A stretch of DNA of 50,800 bases from sequence record NC_047820.1. One strand, written 5' to 3'. The stretch is from Escherichia phage vB_EcoS_ESCO41. The first letter of the stretch is position 1, and each line of letters starts with the position of its first letter. The notes beneath the pieces are model-generated. The model was not told where the DNA came from. It was given only the letters and a program-made list of their open reading frames with translations, and made no database searches. Shown in pieces: positions 1-50,800 of this stretch. The position numbers were made by a program, and so were the translations under genes.

Positions 1-100
1 TTGCAGCTATTGCAATGATTCACTTCACTATTGCGCATATAGCAATATTGCATCTATTGCAATGATGTTTTCGATTGTTGCGAATTGAGCAATGATTCAT
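1..100. repeat. iteron-like cluster of ~4 degenerate ~20-bp repeats built on the palindrome ATTGCAAT / GCAATGAT
   Basis: Direct reading: ttgcagctattgcaatgatt (1-20), ttgcgcatatagcaatattg (31-50), ctattgcaatgatg (54-67), ttgcgaattgagcaatgatt (78-97); no credible ORF. Confidence 0.5.
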
Positions 101-207
101 TGATGGGGGGAATGATGGAGTGATGGACTACCATACAAGTTGATTTTGATTCTGGCTGAGCCATTTTTTAGCCGACGCGTAATTGTGTGTAACTCATGTA
201 TAGGGCC

Positions 208-612: not shown

Positions 613-1149
613 ATGGATAAGGTGACATTGGGTGATGTGATTCGTGAGATGGTCCGCCAGGCGATTAAGTCCGACAAGAAGCTATGCGTCGTTCCGGTCC
701 GCAAGATATTCAACCTGGTCAACGGGTATGATTATCCGGATGAAATCATCGACGAGGTGACGGGGGGGATAACTAGTCCAGGTCGTGAAATCGCAGGCCT
801 GAAAAGTTCATACATCTATAACACCGCAGCAAGAATGCAGGAGCTTCGCGATATTGATATGCACGTCAAGCATCGCTTTATCTGGCTGGCGTCAGGCGAG
901 GAAACGGCAGCTCGCAAGGTTGATGGCGATGGCGCGGACAAGAACCTCCTGATCCAGCTTGAGCCAGGCGCTCTTAAGCCGACCAAGCGCAAGGCTGCCG
1001 ATATTGAGAAAGAGGTAGCCACCATTGAAAGGTTCAAGGCAAGACTACTCAAGATCACGCCGAACATTATAGACCTGCAAGGCGAACAAAAAGAAGGCGC
1101 GCTTATCGCCCTGGCTCGCTACCATGAAATGATTAAGGAGACTAACTGA
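613..1149 (+). CDS. hypothetical protein (178 aa)
   Basis: Long ORF downstream of promoter; no recognised motif. Confidence 0.55.
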   Translation: MDKVTLGDVIREMVRQAIKSDKKLCVVPVRKIFNLVNGYDYPDEIIDEVTGGITSPGREIAGLKSSYIYNTAARMQELRDIDMHVKHRFIWLASGEETAARKVDGDGADKNLLIQLEPGALKPTKRKAADIEKEVATIERFKARLLKITPNIIDLQGEQKEGALIALARYHEMIKETN

Positions 1150-1673
1150 TGTTTAATTTTGACGAAGACAAACTGACTGATGAGCAGATTATGAATATTG
1201 CTATCCAGGATGGGCTACCGCCACTGCGGGTTGCAATCAATGCTAACGGGTATCGGCATGTTCAGCACCTATGGGGTCAGCCTGATGCATCTGAAGTCTA
1301 CAGAGATGAAGCGCTGGGCGTTCTGATTAAGTTGATCAGGAAGATGGCAAGGAACGGCAAGGGAGTGGTGGGTGTCAAGTCTCTATACGAAGGCGCGCGC
1401 AAGGTTAAACCGTTCGTAGGATGCTTTGATATCATGTTGCGCATCAAGGGTGGGCTCCCCGCTCTAGAGGAAATGAATCTCACGTGCCTCATTGGAGATA
1501 AGATTTATGTCCACCCGGCTATCATTGATGAGTACTGGAAACCAAACTTCAAAACTTACGAAGGTGAGTATGCTAGTAGACTACCATACCACTTACGGTA
1601 CGGTGAGGATGAGGTGGAGGCGGCGATCGAGTTCTACCGGAAAGCTAAATCACTCCTGAATGGTGAATATTAA
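1149..1673 (+). CDS. hypothetical protein; internally deleted paralog of the 527-aa P-loop ATPase at 46380..47963 (N- and C-terminal segments only)
   Basis: MFNFDEDKL..LPPLRVAINANGYR and NGKGVVGVKSLYEGARKVKPF..TCLIGDKIY match both termini of the 527-aa protein; ATGA overlap with upstream gene. Confidence 0.6.
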   Translation: MFNFDEDKLTDEQIMNIAIQDGLPPLRVAINANGYRHVQHLWGQPDASEVYRDEALGVLIKLIRKMARNGKGVVGVKSLYEGARKVKPFVGCFDIMLRIKGGLPALEEMNLTCLIGDKIYVHPAIIDEYWKPNFKTYEGEYASRLPYHLRYGEDEVEAAIEFYRKAKSLLNGEY

Positions 1674-7970: not shown

Positions 7971-8489
7971 ATGAAAGACGAAAATTTCACCAGCCACGCG
8001 AACGAGAAGGTTCGAATCGGTAACTTCAAAGAGCTATACAATAAAAAGTATGGCGACATTGCCAACCTGAACCATCGTCACCCAATGACGCCTGAGACTG
8101 TATTCAACCTTGCGGTTAAATATTTCTCATGGGCCGAGGACCAGGCAATTAAGGCAATCGAAACGGCGAGCTTCCATGGTGTAGTTACTGAGAACCTAGT
8201 GCATAAGCCTCGCATTTTCACTTTAAACGGATTCTGCCTGTACTGCGGAGTTACAGCAAGCTCAATTCAGAGCTGGCGCGCATCACCTGGATTCGCGGAG
8301 GTAATGGAGTTCGTTGACTCTGTAATCCATGAGCAAAAATATCAGCTTGCTGCAGCCAATATCATCAATGCTGGGTTTGTAGGCAAGGAGATTGGAATCG
8401 ACAAGCCCGCCGAGGTCAACGTAAGTAATGTAGTGAATGATACTCAGACGATTGAGGATGCTGTGAAAAGCGTTCTTGATAAGATTTGA
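7971..8489 (+). CDS. putative terminase small subunit
   Basis: 172-aa ORF immediately upstream of the large terminase; assignment by position only. Confidence 0.45.
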   Translation: MKDENFTSHANEKVRIGNFKELYNKKYGDIANLNHRHPMTPETVFNLAVKYFSWAEDQAIKAIETASFHGVVTENLVHKPRIFTLNGFCLYCGVTASSIQSWRASPGFAEVMEFVDSVIHEQKYQLAAANIINAGFVGKEIGIDKPAEVNVSNVVNDTQTIEDAVKSVLDKI

Positions 8490-8516: not shown

Positions 8517-10136
8517 ATGTGCACAATGGCAAGTAAAGACATTTTAATATGGGAAAATCTAACCGAGAAAGAGAAGTCGGTAGTGAAGGTGATGAGCGAA
8601 AGGTCTTTTAGTGATTTTATGCGCATATGGTTCGCTTTGATACAGGCTCAGAAGTTTAGGTCTAATTGGCACTTCAACTACCTTTGCTGGAAGGTTGAGC
8701 AGATAATCAACGGTGAGATACAAAACATCATATTCAACATTACCCCAGGCTCTGGCAAGACTGAGATCTTCTCCATTCACATGCCAGTGTATTGCATGTT
8801 CAGGAGCGAGAAGATAAGGAATCTTAACCTCTCATTCTCTGATAGTCTCGTTAAGGATAACGGGATCAGGACGCGTGAGATTATCGGGTCTGATGAGTTC
8901 CAGGAGCTTTGGCCCTGCAAACTAGCAAAGGCTTCAGGTGGTGACATTACCGCTCTAAACTCAAAGGAAAAGGCATGGTTAACTCTAACTTCACGTGCGA
9001 TCGGTGGTCAGGTAACTGGTAAGCGTGGCGGTTATATGGATGATGGCTTCACCGGAATGCTGACGCTTGATGACCCTGAGAAGCCGAAAGACCTATACTC
9101 AGCAGTAAAGAGAAAGGCTGGTCACACGCTGTTAAAGAACACCGTTCGATCGCGAAGAATGAATGACAAGACACCATGCGTTGTTGTTCAGCAGCGACTA
9201 CACGTAAACGACGCGACTTGGTTCCTGATGAATGGCGGTATGGGTGGGATGCAGTTTGAGCAGGTAATCATTCCGGCCCTGGTCACTGAGGAATACAGAG
9301 ACGCACTTCCTGACTGGTTGAAAGAAGAGTTTGACCGCGACGTTTTATCTTCTGAACCTGTCGAGATTGATGGTGTTAAGCATTATTCATTCTGGCCTGC
9401 AAAAGAAAGCGCAGAGAGCTTGCTTGCATTGCGGGAGGCCGACCTTTACACCTTTGAGTCTCAGTATCAGCAAAAGCCGATCGCGCTTGGTGGCAACGCG
9501 TTCAAGTCGGAATGGTTCCAGTATTACGGCGACGGCGAAAAAGCCAACATGCCAAAACCGGATCGCTTCGAATACCTCTTTACCACTGCGGACACCGCGC
9601 AGAAGGCTGAGGAAATTCACGACTACAGCGTATTTGTTCTGTGGGGTAAGTATAAGGATCGCGTGTATTTCATCGACGGCATTCGCGGTAAGTGGGAAGC
9701 GCCGGACCTTGAAACGATGGCTCTTAACTTTTACGGCAACTGCTTTAAGTGGGCGAAGGAGAACAAGACGTCATTACGCAAGGTTTACATTGAAGACAAG
9801 GCGAGCGGTACGGGCCTGATCCAGTCAATTAACAAGAAGCTCCCGATTGACATCACGCCAGTGCAGCGAGATACCGACAAGGTTACGCGTGCAATGGACG
9901 CAGCACCAATCATGAAAGCAGGGCGAATCGTTTTTCCTGAATCTCACCCAATGCTTACTGAAATGGAAGCGGAACTGGTAGGCTTCACCTTTGATGATAG
10001 CCATCCTCACGATGATATCGTGGATAACGTGGTTGATGCTGGTAACTTCGAGATGAACTTGCTTGATGATCCGGTGGCACGAATGAAAAAACTCGCAGGA
10101 CTCAGGAAAAGCACTAAAAGTCAAAACACGCCTTAG
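8517..10136 (+). CDS. terminase large subunit (likelier start ATG 8526)
   Basis: 539 aa, P-loop-like NITPGSGKTE, directly upstream of portal; GGAG 8512-8515 fits the 8526 start. Confidence 0.75.
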   Translation: MCTMASKDILIWENLTEKEKSVVKVMSERSFSDFMRIWFALIQAQKFRSNWHFNYLCWKVEQIINGEIQNIIFNITPGSGKTEIFSIHMPVYCMFRSEKIRNLNLSFSDSLVKDNGIRTREIIGSDEFQELWPCKLAKASGGDITALNSKEKAWLTLTSRAIGGQVTGKRGGYMDDGFTGMLTLDDPEKPKDLYSAVKRKAGHTLLKNTVRSRRMNDKTPCVVVQQRLHVNDATWFLMNGGMGGMQFEQVIIPALVTEEYRDALPDWLKEEFDRDVLSSEPVEIDGVKHYSFWPAKESAESLLALREADLYTFESQYQQKPIALGGNAFKSEWFQYYGDGEKANMPKPDRFEYLFTTADTAQKAEEIHDYSVFVLWGKYKDRVYFIDGIRGKWEAPDLETMALNFYGNCFKWAKENKTSLRKVYIEDKASGTGLIQSINKKLPIDITPVQRDTDKVTRAMDAAPIMKAGRIVFPESHPMLTEMEAELVGFTFDDSHPHDDIVDNVVDAGNFEMNLLDDPVARMKKLAGLRKSTKSQNTP

Positions 10137-36217: not shown

Positions 36218-37159
36218 TCATGAATACTTATCTATCAGATCCTGCGGCGTATATAGCTTTCGCTCAAGGCCCATCTTGAAGTTTCCACCGTTCGGCACGA
36301 CGACCTTCAAATCTCTCTCATCAGCCATGTAAAGCGTTCTCAAATCGTCAGCCGGACAAGCTACGCGCAACTCTCGATCTCCACGATAACGATAAGCAAC
36401 TATCTCAAGATTCTCAGGAGAGAAAGTAACCCAGACTTCCTGAATGGTCGCCATCTTCACACGATAACCATCAATCAGATCGCTTGTCATATATATAGCT
36501 GCATCAGCCTCGCCACTCCCCAGCTTAACCACTGAGCCGCGAGAATAATCACGCGCAAGGAAAGTGTATTCGCCATTATCATAAGCAAACATGACGTTAC
36601 ACATATCCTCATCAATTCCGTCATGGTGGACCATGTAGCACGGTAGTGCGTGTATTAGCTCCTCAGTGCCATTCTGACGCACTTTTACGCCAACATCATA
36701 CGAATCCTCAGTTAGGCACTCATACACGCTTAAATCGGTGCTCTCGCGCTTTTCTGTGCGTTCCATTACAGCTACACACGACTCATGATCCGCCATCTTG
36801 CCTAGGCCTTTCTCCGGTACGCGTGACGCCCTGCGGTAAGCTTTGGCTTTGTAATCCTGTGGCACTTTGCCAAGGAATCGACCGAGAATATTAATCACTT
36901 CACTGTAAGGCTCACCAGTCAGCTTCATCATCCAGCCAACACCGGAGTCGTTACCGCACTGATTACAGATTGCCCCACCGTCACCAGGGGAGTTAATGTT
37001 ATCAGTCCAGCGGAAGCGATCCGATCCTCCACAATACGGACAAGCCTGGTGCTTCTTATTAAAAACTCCAGACTGTAAGCCACATATCGACTGCAAGGCT
37101 TCTCGCCATAACCCCTTCATATATGGCAGAACTTCTTCTTTCCGATACATCTCATTCAC
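36218..37159 (-). CDS. primase-like zinc-binding protein (putative; GTG start)
   Basis: CPYCGGSDRFRW..CNQCG zinc-finger-like pairs near N-terminus; 313 aa; replication-module context. Confidence 0.45.
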   Translation of the reverse strand: MNEMYRKEEVLPYMKGLWREALQSICGLQSGVFNKKHQACPYCGGSDRFRWTDNINSPGDGGAICNQCGNDSGVGWMMKLTGEPYSEVINILGRFLGKVPQDYKAKAYRRASRVPEKGLGKMADHESCVAVMERTEKRESTDLSVYECLTEDSYDVGVKVRQNGTEELIHALPCYMVHHDGIDEDMCNVMFAYDNGEYTFLARDYSRGSVVKLGSGEADAAIYMTSDLIDGYRVKMATIQEVWVTFSPENLEIVAYRYRGDRELRVACPADDLRTLYMADERDLKVVVPNGGNFKMGLERKLYTPQDLIDKYS

Positions 37160-46379: not shown

Positions 46380-47963
46380 TTACCCCAGCAATCTCGGATT
46401 AATGTAAATTTTATCACCAATCAGGCACGTATAGTTCTTCTCATCCAACATAGGGATTAGGTGATCCTTGATGCGAGTCATCACACCAGCTTGCCCTTCA
46501 AAGGGTTTGACCTTACGCGCAGCTTCATATAGGGATCGGACACCTACAACGCCTTTCCCGTTCTTGCCTTGCTTGATCAGTATGTCTATCAGCTTGTTCA
46601 TCTCCGCATGGTCGCCAGCGTGACCAGCGGCGTTGGCAGATGACAGATAAGTCTTACTCAGTTCCTGGAACATAATTACCGCTTCCTGCATTGTGTCAAG
46701 CTCAATCTCTCTGGACTTCTGCGGACTCCCGCCATTGGGATTAAACCAGTTACGCACAGTGTGAAGAACAGCCGCGATCCTGATAGCCTGCTTATCAAAC
46801 TTACCAAGCGCGCCGCGAAGCATTGTGTGTGAATACTTCCCGCCGTCCGCAAGGTGAGGCTCCATATCCTGACGCGCACGGTTGAGATATTTCATCGCCG
46901 ACGTGCTCACTGTCAGGTTTACTTCGTGTTCGCTCATGATCTCATGGACCAGACGGAAGTAGTCCGCCTTGAGTCCGCCATCAATCGGCTCATATGTTGA
47001 TTCGCCTTTCTCATCTACGAACACACGCTCACCAAGGAATGACTTCTCACGCACAAGCAGGAAACGCTCGGATACACCGATACCACGCGCGCCAGCGTTC
47101 ATGATCGCGTTTATCGTTTCATCCTGTGCAATTACAGAGATGCAACCCATCGCAATAAAGCTCATGTTATTGTCTGCGTTCGCACGGGCGATAGATACGT
47201 TACCAGCATCCCACGCCTTAAGCACAAGCTCGCTGTTCGTTTTCTTTGAGCCGTCACCATAGGTCATGCCTAACAGTGAGTTCACGCTCGTTGCTTCATC
47301 CGAGATAACTGCAAAGTTGCCCTGGCGGTTGTTGATTCGCGCAAGACCTTCCGGCGTGGTGTCGGATACGGGGAAAACGATGTCACAGAGTCGTTCAAGT
47401 TTTTCTTCAAGCTCCTCTTTCTCCTCAAACAGAGCCGCCATATCAGATGGTGATTTTTCCTGCTTCATCTCCTTGGATAGAGCGGAGAGCTTAGCCATAA
47501 TCTTCTTGCGGTCACGCTTTCGGATCTCGTTGAGTCGCTCAGTCTCTGCGATCATTGGGGCCAGAGAAAGTGAGTTGATGGCTGATTTACCTGTCGATGG
47601 CGGCTGACTGGTTACGACGTAAAGAGCGGTCGGCTGTTGTGTTCCGTGATACTCAACCGTAAATCGGCCCAGCATGGCGGCTGATATGCATCCGAGGAAA
47701 TGCATGTAAGCGGACGACTCTGGGAACTGAACAGAACGAGCGGCATTGCTTGACAGTTTACCAACGACATCATAATCGTTACCAAGTGAGATAACCGGAT
47801 ATTTGTCACCGCCTGAGTCAATCTCTGTTGGGGCTTTCCAGAACGACTGGCTTTGCCTGTATCCGTTCGCATTGATGGCAACGCGCAGAGGCGGGAGGTT
47901 ATCGGCGGCGGCGACAGCCATGACCTGATCGATTGACAATTTATCTTCGTTGAAATCAAACAT
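46380..47963 (-). CDS. P-loop NTPase, putative replication ATPase/helicase (SF3-like)
   Basis: Walker A SQPPSTGKSA, Walker B FAVISDEA; 527 aa; termini homologous to the 174-aa protein at 1149..1673. Confidence 0.55.
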   Translation of the reverse strand: MFDFNEDKLSIDQVMAVAAADNLPPLRVAINANGYRQSQSFWKAPTEIDSGGDKYPVISLGNDYDVVGKLSSNAARSVQFPESSAYMHFLGCISAAMLGRFTVEYHGTQQPTALYVVTSQPPSTGKSAINSLSLAPMIAETERLNEIRKRDRKKIMAKLSALSKEMKQEKSPSDMAALFEEKEELEEKLERLCDIVFPVSDTTPEGLARINNRQGNFAVISDEATSVNSLLGMTYGDGSKKTNSELVLKAWDAGNVSIARANADNNMSFIAMGCISVIAQDETINAIMNAGARGIGVSERFLLVREKSFLGERVFVDEKGESTYEPIDGGLKADYFRLVHEIMSEHEVNLTVSTSAMKYLNRARQDMEPHLADGGKYSHTMLRGALGKFDKQAIRIAAVLHTVRNWFNPNGGSPQKSREIELDTMQEAVIMFQELSKTYLSSANAAGHAGDHAEMNKLIDILIKQGKNGKGVVGVRSLYEAARKVKPFEGQAGVMTRIKDHLIPMLDEKNYTCLIGDKIYINPRLLG

Positions 47964-48634: not shown

Positions 48635-48677
48635 AATATACAGGAAAAGCCCCGAAGGGCTTTAGCAATTAGTGCTA
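48635..48677 (-). promoter_or_regulatory. palindrome-promoter cassette (minus): TAGCACTAATTGCTA + 22 bp + TATATT
   Basis: Plus 48663-48677 palindrome overlaps stop of methyltransferase-like gene; hairpin AGCCC-ttcg-GGGCT. Confidence 0.6.
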
Positions 48678-49343
48678 TTTGTTACTTTCATATAGTGCGC
48701 GAGCAAACCCCTCAGGTGTTAATGATCGGAGTACTTTTGTCTTTGCAGACTTTCCGCCGCAGTATTTCCAGGCCCAGAAGAACCCAATGCTCTCGACTGG
48801 CTTTTTAATCGGTTCAACAAATCCATTCCCACACCAAATACATGTCTTTTTATTATAGGCGTTACGAGGGGGCATCCTGGGGTGATAAACTTCATCATGT
48901 TCAACGTAACCGCCATAATCGCAAGGGTGAAAATAGAAGTCAGGCTTACGCCACAGGCTTGAAAGCTTGCCTACCGGATTCTCGACCATCCAGGGTGCCT
49001 GGAAGTGATTTCCGACTTCCTCGACGAGCTTCGCATTAGCCAAGGCATACGCCAGTTCATCCTCACTGCGCTCATGCTGTGATCCAGACTGAGAGAACAG
49101 CGTGCAATCAGGGAATCCGATAACCATCTGCGCCGGAGGCAGGCCGAGTAATTCACACTTGGTGATGAAATCCTTGTCAATCCACATATTGACGTAGTGG
49201 ATGTTCTCATGCTTCATCTTGATATGGTATTCGCCATGATTACCAGAGTCCGCGTTGAAACAGTAGACGGTGTGACCATCTTCCGCCCATGGCAGGCCAG
49301 CGATGCCGGATCCGTCAAAAAGACAATAAATTACCTTTTTCAT
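48675..49343 (-). CDS. compact C5-cytosine methyltransferase-like protein (putative)
   Basis: Motif I-like LFDGSGIAG, motif IV-like GFPDCTLFSQSG (Pro-Cys), motif VI-like ENPVG; only 222 aa, no obvious target-recognition region. Confidence 0.4.
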   Translation of the reverse strand: MKKVIYCLFDGSGIAGLPWAEDGHTVYCFNADSGNHGEYHIKMKHENIHYVNMWIDKDFITKCELLGLPPAQMVIGFPDCTLFSQSGSQHERSEDELAYALANAKLVEEVGNHFQAPWMVENPVGKLSSLWRKPDFYFHPCDYGGYVEHDEVYHPRMPPRNAYNKKTCIWCGNGFVEPIKKPVESIGFFWAWKYCGGKSAKTKVLRSLTPEGFARALYESNK

Positions 49344-49746: not shown

Positions 49747-49962
49747 TTAGAACGGTATTCCGTCGTCAAATTTTAAGCGGTAGTCGAAATCATCACCGAT
49801 TCCGTCGACTGACTGGTTGCTCTCGCTTTCCAGATCCATATCCATAATGCCGAGAGCGTCATCAAGTTCTATACATCCATAAGCTACCTTGAGCGCCCAC
49901 TCTTCATTAAGTCCGGCTTCAAGTGCCGCGCGGTGGCGGCTCCAGAAATTATCTTGATGCAC
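49747..49962 (-). CDS. small acidic protein ending in SSB-like tail ..FDDGIPF (GTG start)
   Basis: 71 aa, highly acidic; C-terminal DDGIPF mirrors the SSB tail DDIPF of 33240..33683. Confidence 0.4.
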   Translation of the reverse strand: MHQDNFWSRHRAALEAGLNEEWALKVAYGCIELDDALGIMDMDLESESNQSVDGIGDDFDYRLKFDDGIPF

Positions 49963-50271: not shown

Positions 50272-50703
50272 TTAACGATTTTTTGGTGGTCGTTTATAGT
50301 GAGAATAAAACGGCGTTGGCGGAAAGCATGGCTGATAACCAGTCAGGTTCTGACGTGCCGCTTTACCGAGCGCAACAGCCGCATTTTGCTGAACTCTGGC
50401 AATCTCACCATTGCGGAACAACCGCTCTTTACTGAACCGTCGCCCCATGAACTCAACGGCAAGGTAGTCAATAGGATCTAGCGCCACGCGTTTTTCCATG
50501 AATACCTTTCGGCTTGATGCCAGGAATACTTTGCTGCCTTTCTTGCCGACTGCTGAGCGAATAAGTCTATAGGTTGAATCGACGAACTGGTAATAGAAGC
50601 GCCATGCTCCATAGGACCACACATACATCCGGCCTGACGGAGTAATGAATCTGGTCTTGCCGTCAGCAATGCCCTTATAGATAACTCCGTAAACAATGCT
50701 CAT
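50272..50703 (-). CDS. hypothetical protein (143 aa)
   Basis: ORF with RBS AAGGAGAAATAA. Confidence 0.5.
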   Translation of the reverse strand: MSIVYGVIYKGIADGKTRFITPSGRMYVWSYGAWRFYYQFVDSTYRLIRSAVGKKGSKVFLASSRKVFMEKRVALDPIDYLAVEFMGRRFSKERLFRNGEIARVQQNAAVALGKAARQNLTGYQPCFPPTPFYSHYKRPPKNR

Positions 50704-50736
50704 TTATTTCTCCTTATCTCTCGTTTCTATGAGGTA

Positions 50737-50780
50737 ATAATAGCGAATCCACCATGACTGGTCATTAGCAAAAAGTGCTA
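50737..50780 (-). promoter_or_regulatory. palindrome-promoter cassette (minus): TAGCACTTTTTGCTA + 23 bp + TATTAT
   Basis: Plus 50766-50780 palindrome; leader CATAGAAACGAGAG. Confidence 0.5.
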
Positions 50781-50800
50781 TTCGTTGGATTTATGGATTG

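Follow-up and report, generated by a model that had tools for sequence, protein, structure and literature searches.

The sequence record of Escherichia phage vB_EcoS_ESCO41 (NC_047820.1) opens, within its first 100 bp, on a cluster of short palindromic repeats, and the question raised by this locus is which process reads them. A first-pass annotation, made from the sequence alone, had placed a replication origin, a packaging (pac) recognition site and a partition site side by side as candidates, and had taken the position of the repeats at the sequence boundary as a sign that they mark the genome end or the start of packaging. The analysis described here was carried out on the whole stretch of DNA, 50,800 nt in length, referred to below as the window. 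The T1-like phages (Drexlerviridae) are abundant, are notorious contaminants of laboratories and fermentations, are candidates for phage therapy and are capable of generalised transduction. The pac site of the T1 family has been known genetically since the 1980s. Packaging or transduction of foreign DNA directed by a cloned T1 pac fragment is reported to have been demonstrated by Liebeschuetz and Ritchie in 1986. As far as could be found, the sequence determinants of this site are left undefined in the searchable literature; a description of the TTGC-N7-GCAA array reported below was not found there either, the genome papers of T1 and Rtp lying outside that literature, and an earlier description is possible.

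The window was found to be the complete, circularly permuted genome of an Rtp-like phage of the Drexlerviridae. Comparison of its first 3 kb with the database by megablast matched 274 phage records, nearly all of them Escherichia, Shigella and Klebsiella siphophages of this family, with Rtpvirus IME253 as the top match. The sequence that precedes the homologue of position 1 in IME253 and ETEP102 matches window 50700-50800; in these relatives this stretch runs straight into window position 1, and the repeat region extends leftwards over the junction. The contiguity shows that the window holds the entire genome, cut open within an intergenic region of 709 bp, and that its boundary is not a physical end. 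Moreover, T1-like genomes are customarily oriented on the T1 record NC_005833, and therefore the window opens exactly at the first repeat, whose position is homologous to positions 2-16 of that record. Position 1 is thus an inherited GenBank convention and no measured end, which makes the boundary argument for a genome end weak. The records of T1, Rtp and TLS begin at differing points in or left of the array, so that record starts are in part conventions. The setting of the repeats is as follows.

50704-50800 plus 1-612: divergent intergenic region of 709 bp, between the leftward and the rightward operon
50272-50703, minus strand: first gene of the leftward early operon
50737-50765, minus strand: predicted leftward sigma-70-like promoter (ATGACC, 17 nt, TATTAT) for the early leftward operon, with the distance of its -10 hexamer conserved in relatives
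50763-50783, minus strand: copy of the 21-nt family repeat, with consensus aaATAGCACnnnTTGnTAAAA, adjoining the -35 of the leftward promoter on its upstream side; left border of the putative pac region
613-1149, plus strand: DUF7174 gene, first gene of the rightward operon

The 21-nt repeat lies at a fixed 23 nt from the -10 hexamer in four relatives. It is a multi-copy element of the Drexlerviridae whose function was described as not known in the TLS paper (PMC11447400), and another copy is found here near 2182-2197 on the minus strand. The order of elements is common to the lineages: leftward gene, promoter, 21-nt family repeat, array, G tract, about 150 nt, (TAT)n block, promoters and DUF7174 gene. 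The corresponding loci of relatives were collected with the DUF7174 gene as query, which gave 8 loci, and by a scan with the 21-nt repeat pattern, which was more productive.

The first-pass annotation had described four degenerate units built around the perfect palindrome ATTGCAAT. A dense, non-random cluster was confirmed in 1-130, but the proposed core was wrong: ATTGCAAT is present only twice in the whole genome against 2.11 copies expected, which is the chance level. The true recurring unit is a 15-bp dyad, TTGC-N7-GCAA, of which there are four copies, arranged together with their flanks as listed.

50788-50800, plus strand: GATTTAT followed by GATTG, adjoining dyad A over the window junction
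1-15: dyad A, TTGCAGCTATTGCAA (TTGC-N7-GCAA), which holds the first ATTGCAAT palindrome at 9-16; arms kept in 11 Rtp-like sequences
31-45: dyad B, TTGCGCATATAGCAA, with extended arms TATTGC/GCAATA
48-62: dyad C, TTGCATCTATTGCAA, with the second ATTGCAAT at 56-63; spacer variable and arms kept in relatives
78-92: dyad D, inside GATTGTTGCGAATTGAGCAATGATTC; family-wide the most conserved site type (GATTGTTGC-N7-GCAATGATT)
1-94, plus strand: tandem duplication of a 47-bp two-dyad module (1-47 against 48-94, 72% identical)
99-127, plus strand: purine-rich tract with TGATGG three times (101-106, 113-118 and 121-126) and a G6 run at 105-110

Genome-wide, TTGC-N7-GCAA occurs eight times against 1.53 expected, and eight copies were obtained in 0 of 100 shuffles. 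Half of the eight fall inside 92 bp (Poisson probability for four copies in 92 bp about 1e-10), and when the local 175 nt were dinucleotide-shuffled 5000 times, three or more dyads never appeared. The array is the sole dyad cluster in the 50.8 kb, the remaining four matches being lone copies in coding sequence without the ATTGC/GCAAT flanks. The GATGG repeats that had been reported after the array are present as the TGATGG copies of the purine-rich tract, and the reported absence of coding potential also holds, there being no ORF of at least 40 aa in 1-139 on either strand. No promoter-like site was found inside the array, a search of 1-700 against Rfam for a structured RNA gave no match, and folding of 1-130 as DNA, in which a hairpin or cruciform signal was looked for, gave an unremarkable z of -1.67. 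Most annotated relatives carry no annotated feature at the array.

Conservation among 11 distinct Rtp-like sequences was 0.97 in the eight arm tetramers, 0.81 in the spacers and 0.87 in the DNA between the sites. The spacer of dyad C reads ATCTATT, ATCGTTT or TTCAGAT across relatives while its arms are unchanged, and the flanks of dyad D recur in T1-like phages and in the loci L116/L123. T1 and the T1-like phages have a single two-dyad module with 30-bp spacing; two or three dyads each are present in L116/L123, L064 and L022, and the Webervirus-like phages have one near-dyad, a degenerate form. One Rtp-like phage, L045, has one arm mutated in every dyad, and the TLS-like phages are without dyads and carry GATTG/GATTT repeats in the equivalent place. 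Four lineages were analysed for short-word content: the Rtp-like, T1-like and TLS-like phages show a strand-specific enrichment of GATT, ATTG and TGAT, about 5-fold, and in the fourth lineage, L116/L123, it is limited to GATTG, at k = 5. A G-rich or GTGAGTGAGTG purine tract follows the array in every lineage, TLS included.

The hexamer TGATTG was considered as a universal element and rejected: it is enriched in the pac regions of relatives, but the exact hexamer is absent from the array of ESCO41 and common genome-wide. The looser GATT/ATTG enrichment is all that holds of this idea. Both hexamers are found in the whole genome at about twice the number given by shuffles (TGATGG 59 against 30.5, TGATTG 83 against 42.9), an excess that probably reflects codons or strand. 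Copies of TGATTG in the first 6 kb are nearly all on the minus strand.

The position of packaging termini in relatives is the next element of the argument. The terminus of phage MSK determined by PhageTerm is at 36,862 on the forward strand (p = 1.6e-9, peaks within 20 nt), and on alignment it corresponds to window 131. The end of SU57, which was picked from PhageTerm candidates together with an abrupt shift in read coverage, aligns with window position ~149, and the record ends of CEB_EC3a and ZL19 with positions ~166 and ~169. The termini or record breaks of these four Rtp-like relatives are thus about 40-80 bp (39-77) to the right of the last dyad. Among T1-like and other records (L033, L047/L048 and L064), the breaks are inside the G tract or at most 38 nt past it. 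The T1 record begins 1 nt before the first dyad, left of the equivalent of dyad A, and its positions 1-2800 are annotated as a repeat region, the 2.8-kb terminal repeat. The pac site of TLS was mapped, by means of a submolar HindIII fragment, to the equivalent intergenic region (German et al. 2024, PMC11447400); the fine assignment of its 6-bp AGATTT as pac was made by these authors by resemblance to P22 alone (PMC11447400). Headful packaging has been reported for T1, TLS, MSK and SU57. The termini of relatives, the terminal repeat of T1 and the mapping in TLS support the packaging part of the earlier proposal, the boundary from which it had been argued being a weak argument, and the cut is likely to lie away from position 1:

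131-169, plus strand: putative series-initiating (pac) cut zone, with packaging rightwards, placed by the termini of relatives

What has been shown is that the repeats exist, that they form a cluster found once in the genome and kept in relatives, and that packaging termini of relatives adjoin them. That the pac cut of ESCO41 is within roughly 100 bp of the array is regarded as highly probable. We infer that it would be made at the same place as in these relatives and that terminase would be the protein reading the dyads. The enzyme itself is encoded downstream.

7971-8489, plus strand: small terminase subunit (TerS), P22 gp3 family; candidate protein for recognition of the pac signal
8517-10136, plus strand: large terminase subunit (TerL), nuclease/ATPase

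The assignment of TerS is given by matches to PF16677 (38.3 bits, cut-off 29.4), phrog_606 and PDB 3P9A (E = 1.1e-14). Taken together, the presence of a gp3-type TerS and a TerL in an Rtp-like genome, the termini of relatives, the uniqueness and conservation of the dyads, the shared architecture and the promoter-free array support the reading, held with moderate confidence, that 50763-50800 plus 1-170 form the pac region of a virulent, headful T1/Rtp-like siphophage, the dyads, flanks and G tract being read by TerS. The gp3-type TerS, possibly with an accessory DNA-binding protein, would assemble on the left, non-encapsidated side, made up of the array of four TTGC-N7-GCAA dyads, its GATT-rich flanks and the tract rich in TGATGG and G. 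The first cut of the series would then be placed by TerL some 40-80 bp further right, at window ~131-169, and the DNA would be translocated rightwards, later cuts being headful and sequence-independent. The expected outcome is terminal redundancy and limited circular permutation.

Comparison with T1 brings out the closest likeness. The two phages share homologous sequence in a homologous position: in T1, TTGC-N7-GCAA is found at 2-16 and 32-46 and is followed by TGATTGTGAGAGGGGGG, in the divergent intergenic region upstream of the DUF7174 gene, and TerS is of the gp3 type in both. T1 differs in having one two-dyad module where ESCO41 has two, and its record starts left of the dyads whereas the termini of the Rtp-like relatives are right of them. 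Judged by sequence and position, the array is the homologue of the T1 pac region. The pac of TLS has an equivalent intergenic location, followed by a purine-rich GTGAGTGAG tract of the same kind, but it has no TTGC-N7-GCAA and contains GATTG/GATTT direct repeats and two AGACC-N4-GGTCT dyads instead.

The pac sites of SPP1 (pacL/pacC/pacR) and P1 are alike in their working principle, a cluster of short repeats beside a defined first cut. In both, several short repeats are bound by the recognition subunit, the hexamer clusters of P1 flanking the cut, and unidirectional headful packaging follows. They show no sequence similarity to the array, and their TerS families differ. The repeats of ESCO41 are documented only on the non-encapsidated side, in contrast to the arrangement of P1, and P1 pac is Dam-controlled at GATC, whereas the ESCO41 region is without GATC. 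A control by Dam as in P1 was therefore considered and set aside, the count of 0 GATC in the 709-bp intergenic region against 2.5 expected not being significant (P = 0.085). A DNA methyltransferase (phrog_757) is encoded at 48675-49343.

The TerS of P22 is homologous to that of ESCO41, but in P22 the pac site is one asymmetric 22-mer within the TerS gene (gene 3) itself, while the array of ESCO41 is located about 8 kb upstream of terS. A P22-like pac inside terS was rejected, as a search for the P22 pac 12-mer, with AAGATTTATCTG at up to 2 mismatches, found none in or near this gene and the total of matches was below chance. Beside dyad A, GATTTAT is replaced in relatives by AGATTTAT, which matches the core of the P22 22-mer; the likeness of GATTTAT and AGATTTAT to this core may be coincidental.

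Whether TerS itself reads the dyads is the point at which the preferred reading is most exposed. The TLS-like pac, in the equivalent place and without dyads, stands against it, as does phage L045 with a mutated arm in every dyad. Perfect dyad symmetry is, furthermore, typical of dimeric helix-turn-helix or winged-helix regulators more than of ring-shaped TerS proteins of the P22 gp3 type. The dyads could be accessory sites or part of an overlapping function. The first alternative accordingly keeps the region as pac and assigns the dyads to an accessory or unrelated dimeric protein of the phage or the host, TerS reading the GATT-rich/G-rich core; IHF at lambda cosB is a model for such an accessory role. 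This arrangement would accommodate the TLS-like pac, with its GATTG/GATTT repeats and GTGAGTGAGTAG tract in the equivalent place and no dyads, as well as the GATT/TGAT enrichment common to the Rtp-like, T1-like and TLS-like phages and the enrichment of GATTG in L116/L123. It also agrees with the TerS proteins of L123, which has dyads, and of L061, on a contig shared with L060 and without dyads: they are 72% identical, so that TerS sequence does not track the presence of dyads, and no signal of covariation between the two was obtained. The extra repeats left of the core differ by lineage as well (GGAATA twice in T1, AGACC-N4-GGTCT twice in TLS). However, no part of the region is better conserved among Rtp-like phages than the dyads, which lie immediately against the G tract; TGATTG and TGATGG, being some twofold in excess of shuffles over the whole genome, offer little specificity on their own; and no candidate accessory protein was identified. 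The alternative is considered unlikely.

A replication origin is the second alternative. In it the phage helicase would bind the dyads through its winged-helix C-terminal domain, a (TAT)n block would serve as unwinding element, and the proximity to pac would be coincidental or coupled. The elements concerned are the following.

270-335: (TAT)n block, 21% GC, candidate unwinding element of such an origin
46380-47963, minus strand: phage helicase with a predicted winged-helix C-terminal domain, 3 kb from the array
1149-1673, plus strand: 'mini-helicase' of 174 aa, a paralogue of the helicase

The mini-helicase has no ATPase core. Its residues 1-45 are 62% identical to residues 1-45 of the helicase and its residues 59-126 are 61% identical to residues 458-526, and a unique tail of about 48 aa completes it. 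It is confined to Rtp-like phages, where it is always beside the DUF7174 gene. The C-terminal domain of the helicase and the corresponding part of this nearby stand-alone paralogue are predicted winged helices (AlphaFold2, pLDDT 77-91), which together with an iteron-like array and an AT-rich block 180 bp away gives the proposal its appeal. The origin of T1-like phages has not been located, and the TLS authors found none (PMC11447400). Groups of short repeats close to an AT-rich block, combined with a helicase that ends in a winged-helix domain, are a likeness to the origin iterons of lambda ori and P4 ori/crr, but these are built of direct iterons and not of dyads, and they differ from the array also in its distance of 180 bp from the AT-rich block, its lack of DnaA boxes and the termini of relatives alongside it. 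No DnaA box was found at up to 1 mismatch in the intergenic region. The AT-rich block is directly flanked by other direct repeats (TGTATACTGTGTAACG twice, CATACGC three times), the dyads being 180 bp distant from it. L064 has dyads and L059 has none, yet their helicase C-terminal domains are 79% identical, so that this domain shows no covariation with the dyads; close pairs of this kind, in the helicase as in TerS, do not discriminate between the possible readers. For the predicted structure of the mini-helicase, whose core is a confident winged helix, the matches from Foldseek were to generic winged helices only (E >= 0.06), from which a DNA-binding specificity cannot be inferred. A lambda O-like initiator was not among the eight proteins scanned, most of which flank the array. 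The mapped termini, finally, account for the position of the array without an origin, and the dyads are rather improbable as origin sites.

As a third alternative, the dyads may be thought of as operator or enhancer sites of a phage transcription regulator acting on the divergent early promoters. A place between the divergent early operons, some 35-150 bp in front of the leftward promoter, would suit such a role, and dimeric regulators typically use dyad symmetry. Yet the dyads overlap no promoter-like element, the genome has no second cluster of them, unlike the 21-nt repeat that accompanies promoters in many copies, and no regulator gene was identified. We assign a low probability to this function.

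It is tempting to combine these elements in a speculative model in which the dyads are bound, in place of terminase, by the helicase C-terminal domain and by the mini-helicase paralogue encoded 1 kb to the right, the 170-bp element being origin and packaging start at once and the paralogue switching it from one role to the other. Only the Rtp-like lineage has this paralogue, and only there has the number of dyads doubled from two to four. Such a model is distinctly doubtful. A parS-like partition site, the third candidate of the first-pass annotation, or a functionless chance or degenerate repeat has only the superficial look of clustered palindromes in its favour and is very unlikely, to the point of being negligible, since the T1-like phages, being virulent, do not pass through a plasmid stage, no ParB-like protein was among the eight proteins scanned, and chance is excluded by the statistics and by conservation across subfamilies.

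The reading of the region as pac offers, in the array with its GATT-rich flanks and G-rich tract, a specific candidate for the pac signal of the T1 family that can be put to the test. A defined signal would permit a consistent annotation of genome ends in a family whose records now open at some six different places within or close to the array. The result is an incremental one and leaves the understanding of headful packaging unchanged.

Further repeats were observed in the same region of the genomes. The stretch from the 21-nt repeat to the pac core holds additional repeats that differ by lineage, which in TLS are two tandem AGACCGATTGGTCT dyads (L137 790-820, TLS record ~49,790-49,820) and in T1-like phages (L006/L018) two copies of GGAATA left of the dyads. 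A hairpin with a 7-bp stem, TACCAGG-TTCG-CCTGGTA, is located directly after the G tract in T1-like phages (L004 70-100, T1 record), with a second copy of the 21-nt repeat following it; this hairpin is missing from Rtp-like phages. In ESCO41 the (TAT)n block is flanked by TGTATACTGTGTAACG, an exact 16-nt direct repeat at 208-223 and 329-344, with CATACGC three times at 228-262, just left of the block, and the T1 record contains CGATTAACA three times at about 397-425. These iteron-like repeats, TGTATACTGTGTAACG, CATACGC and CGATTAACA, are candidates for origin or regulatory sites.
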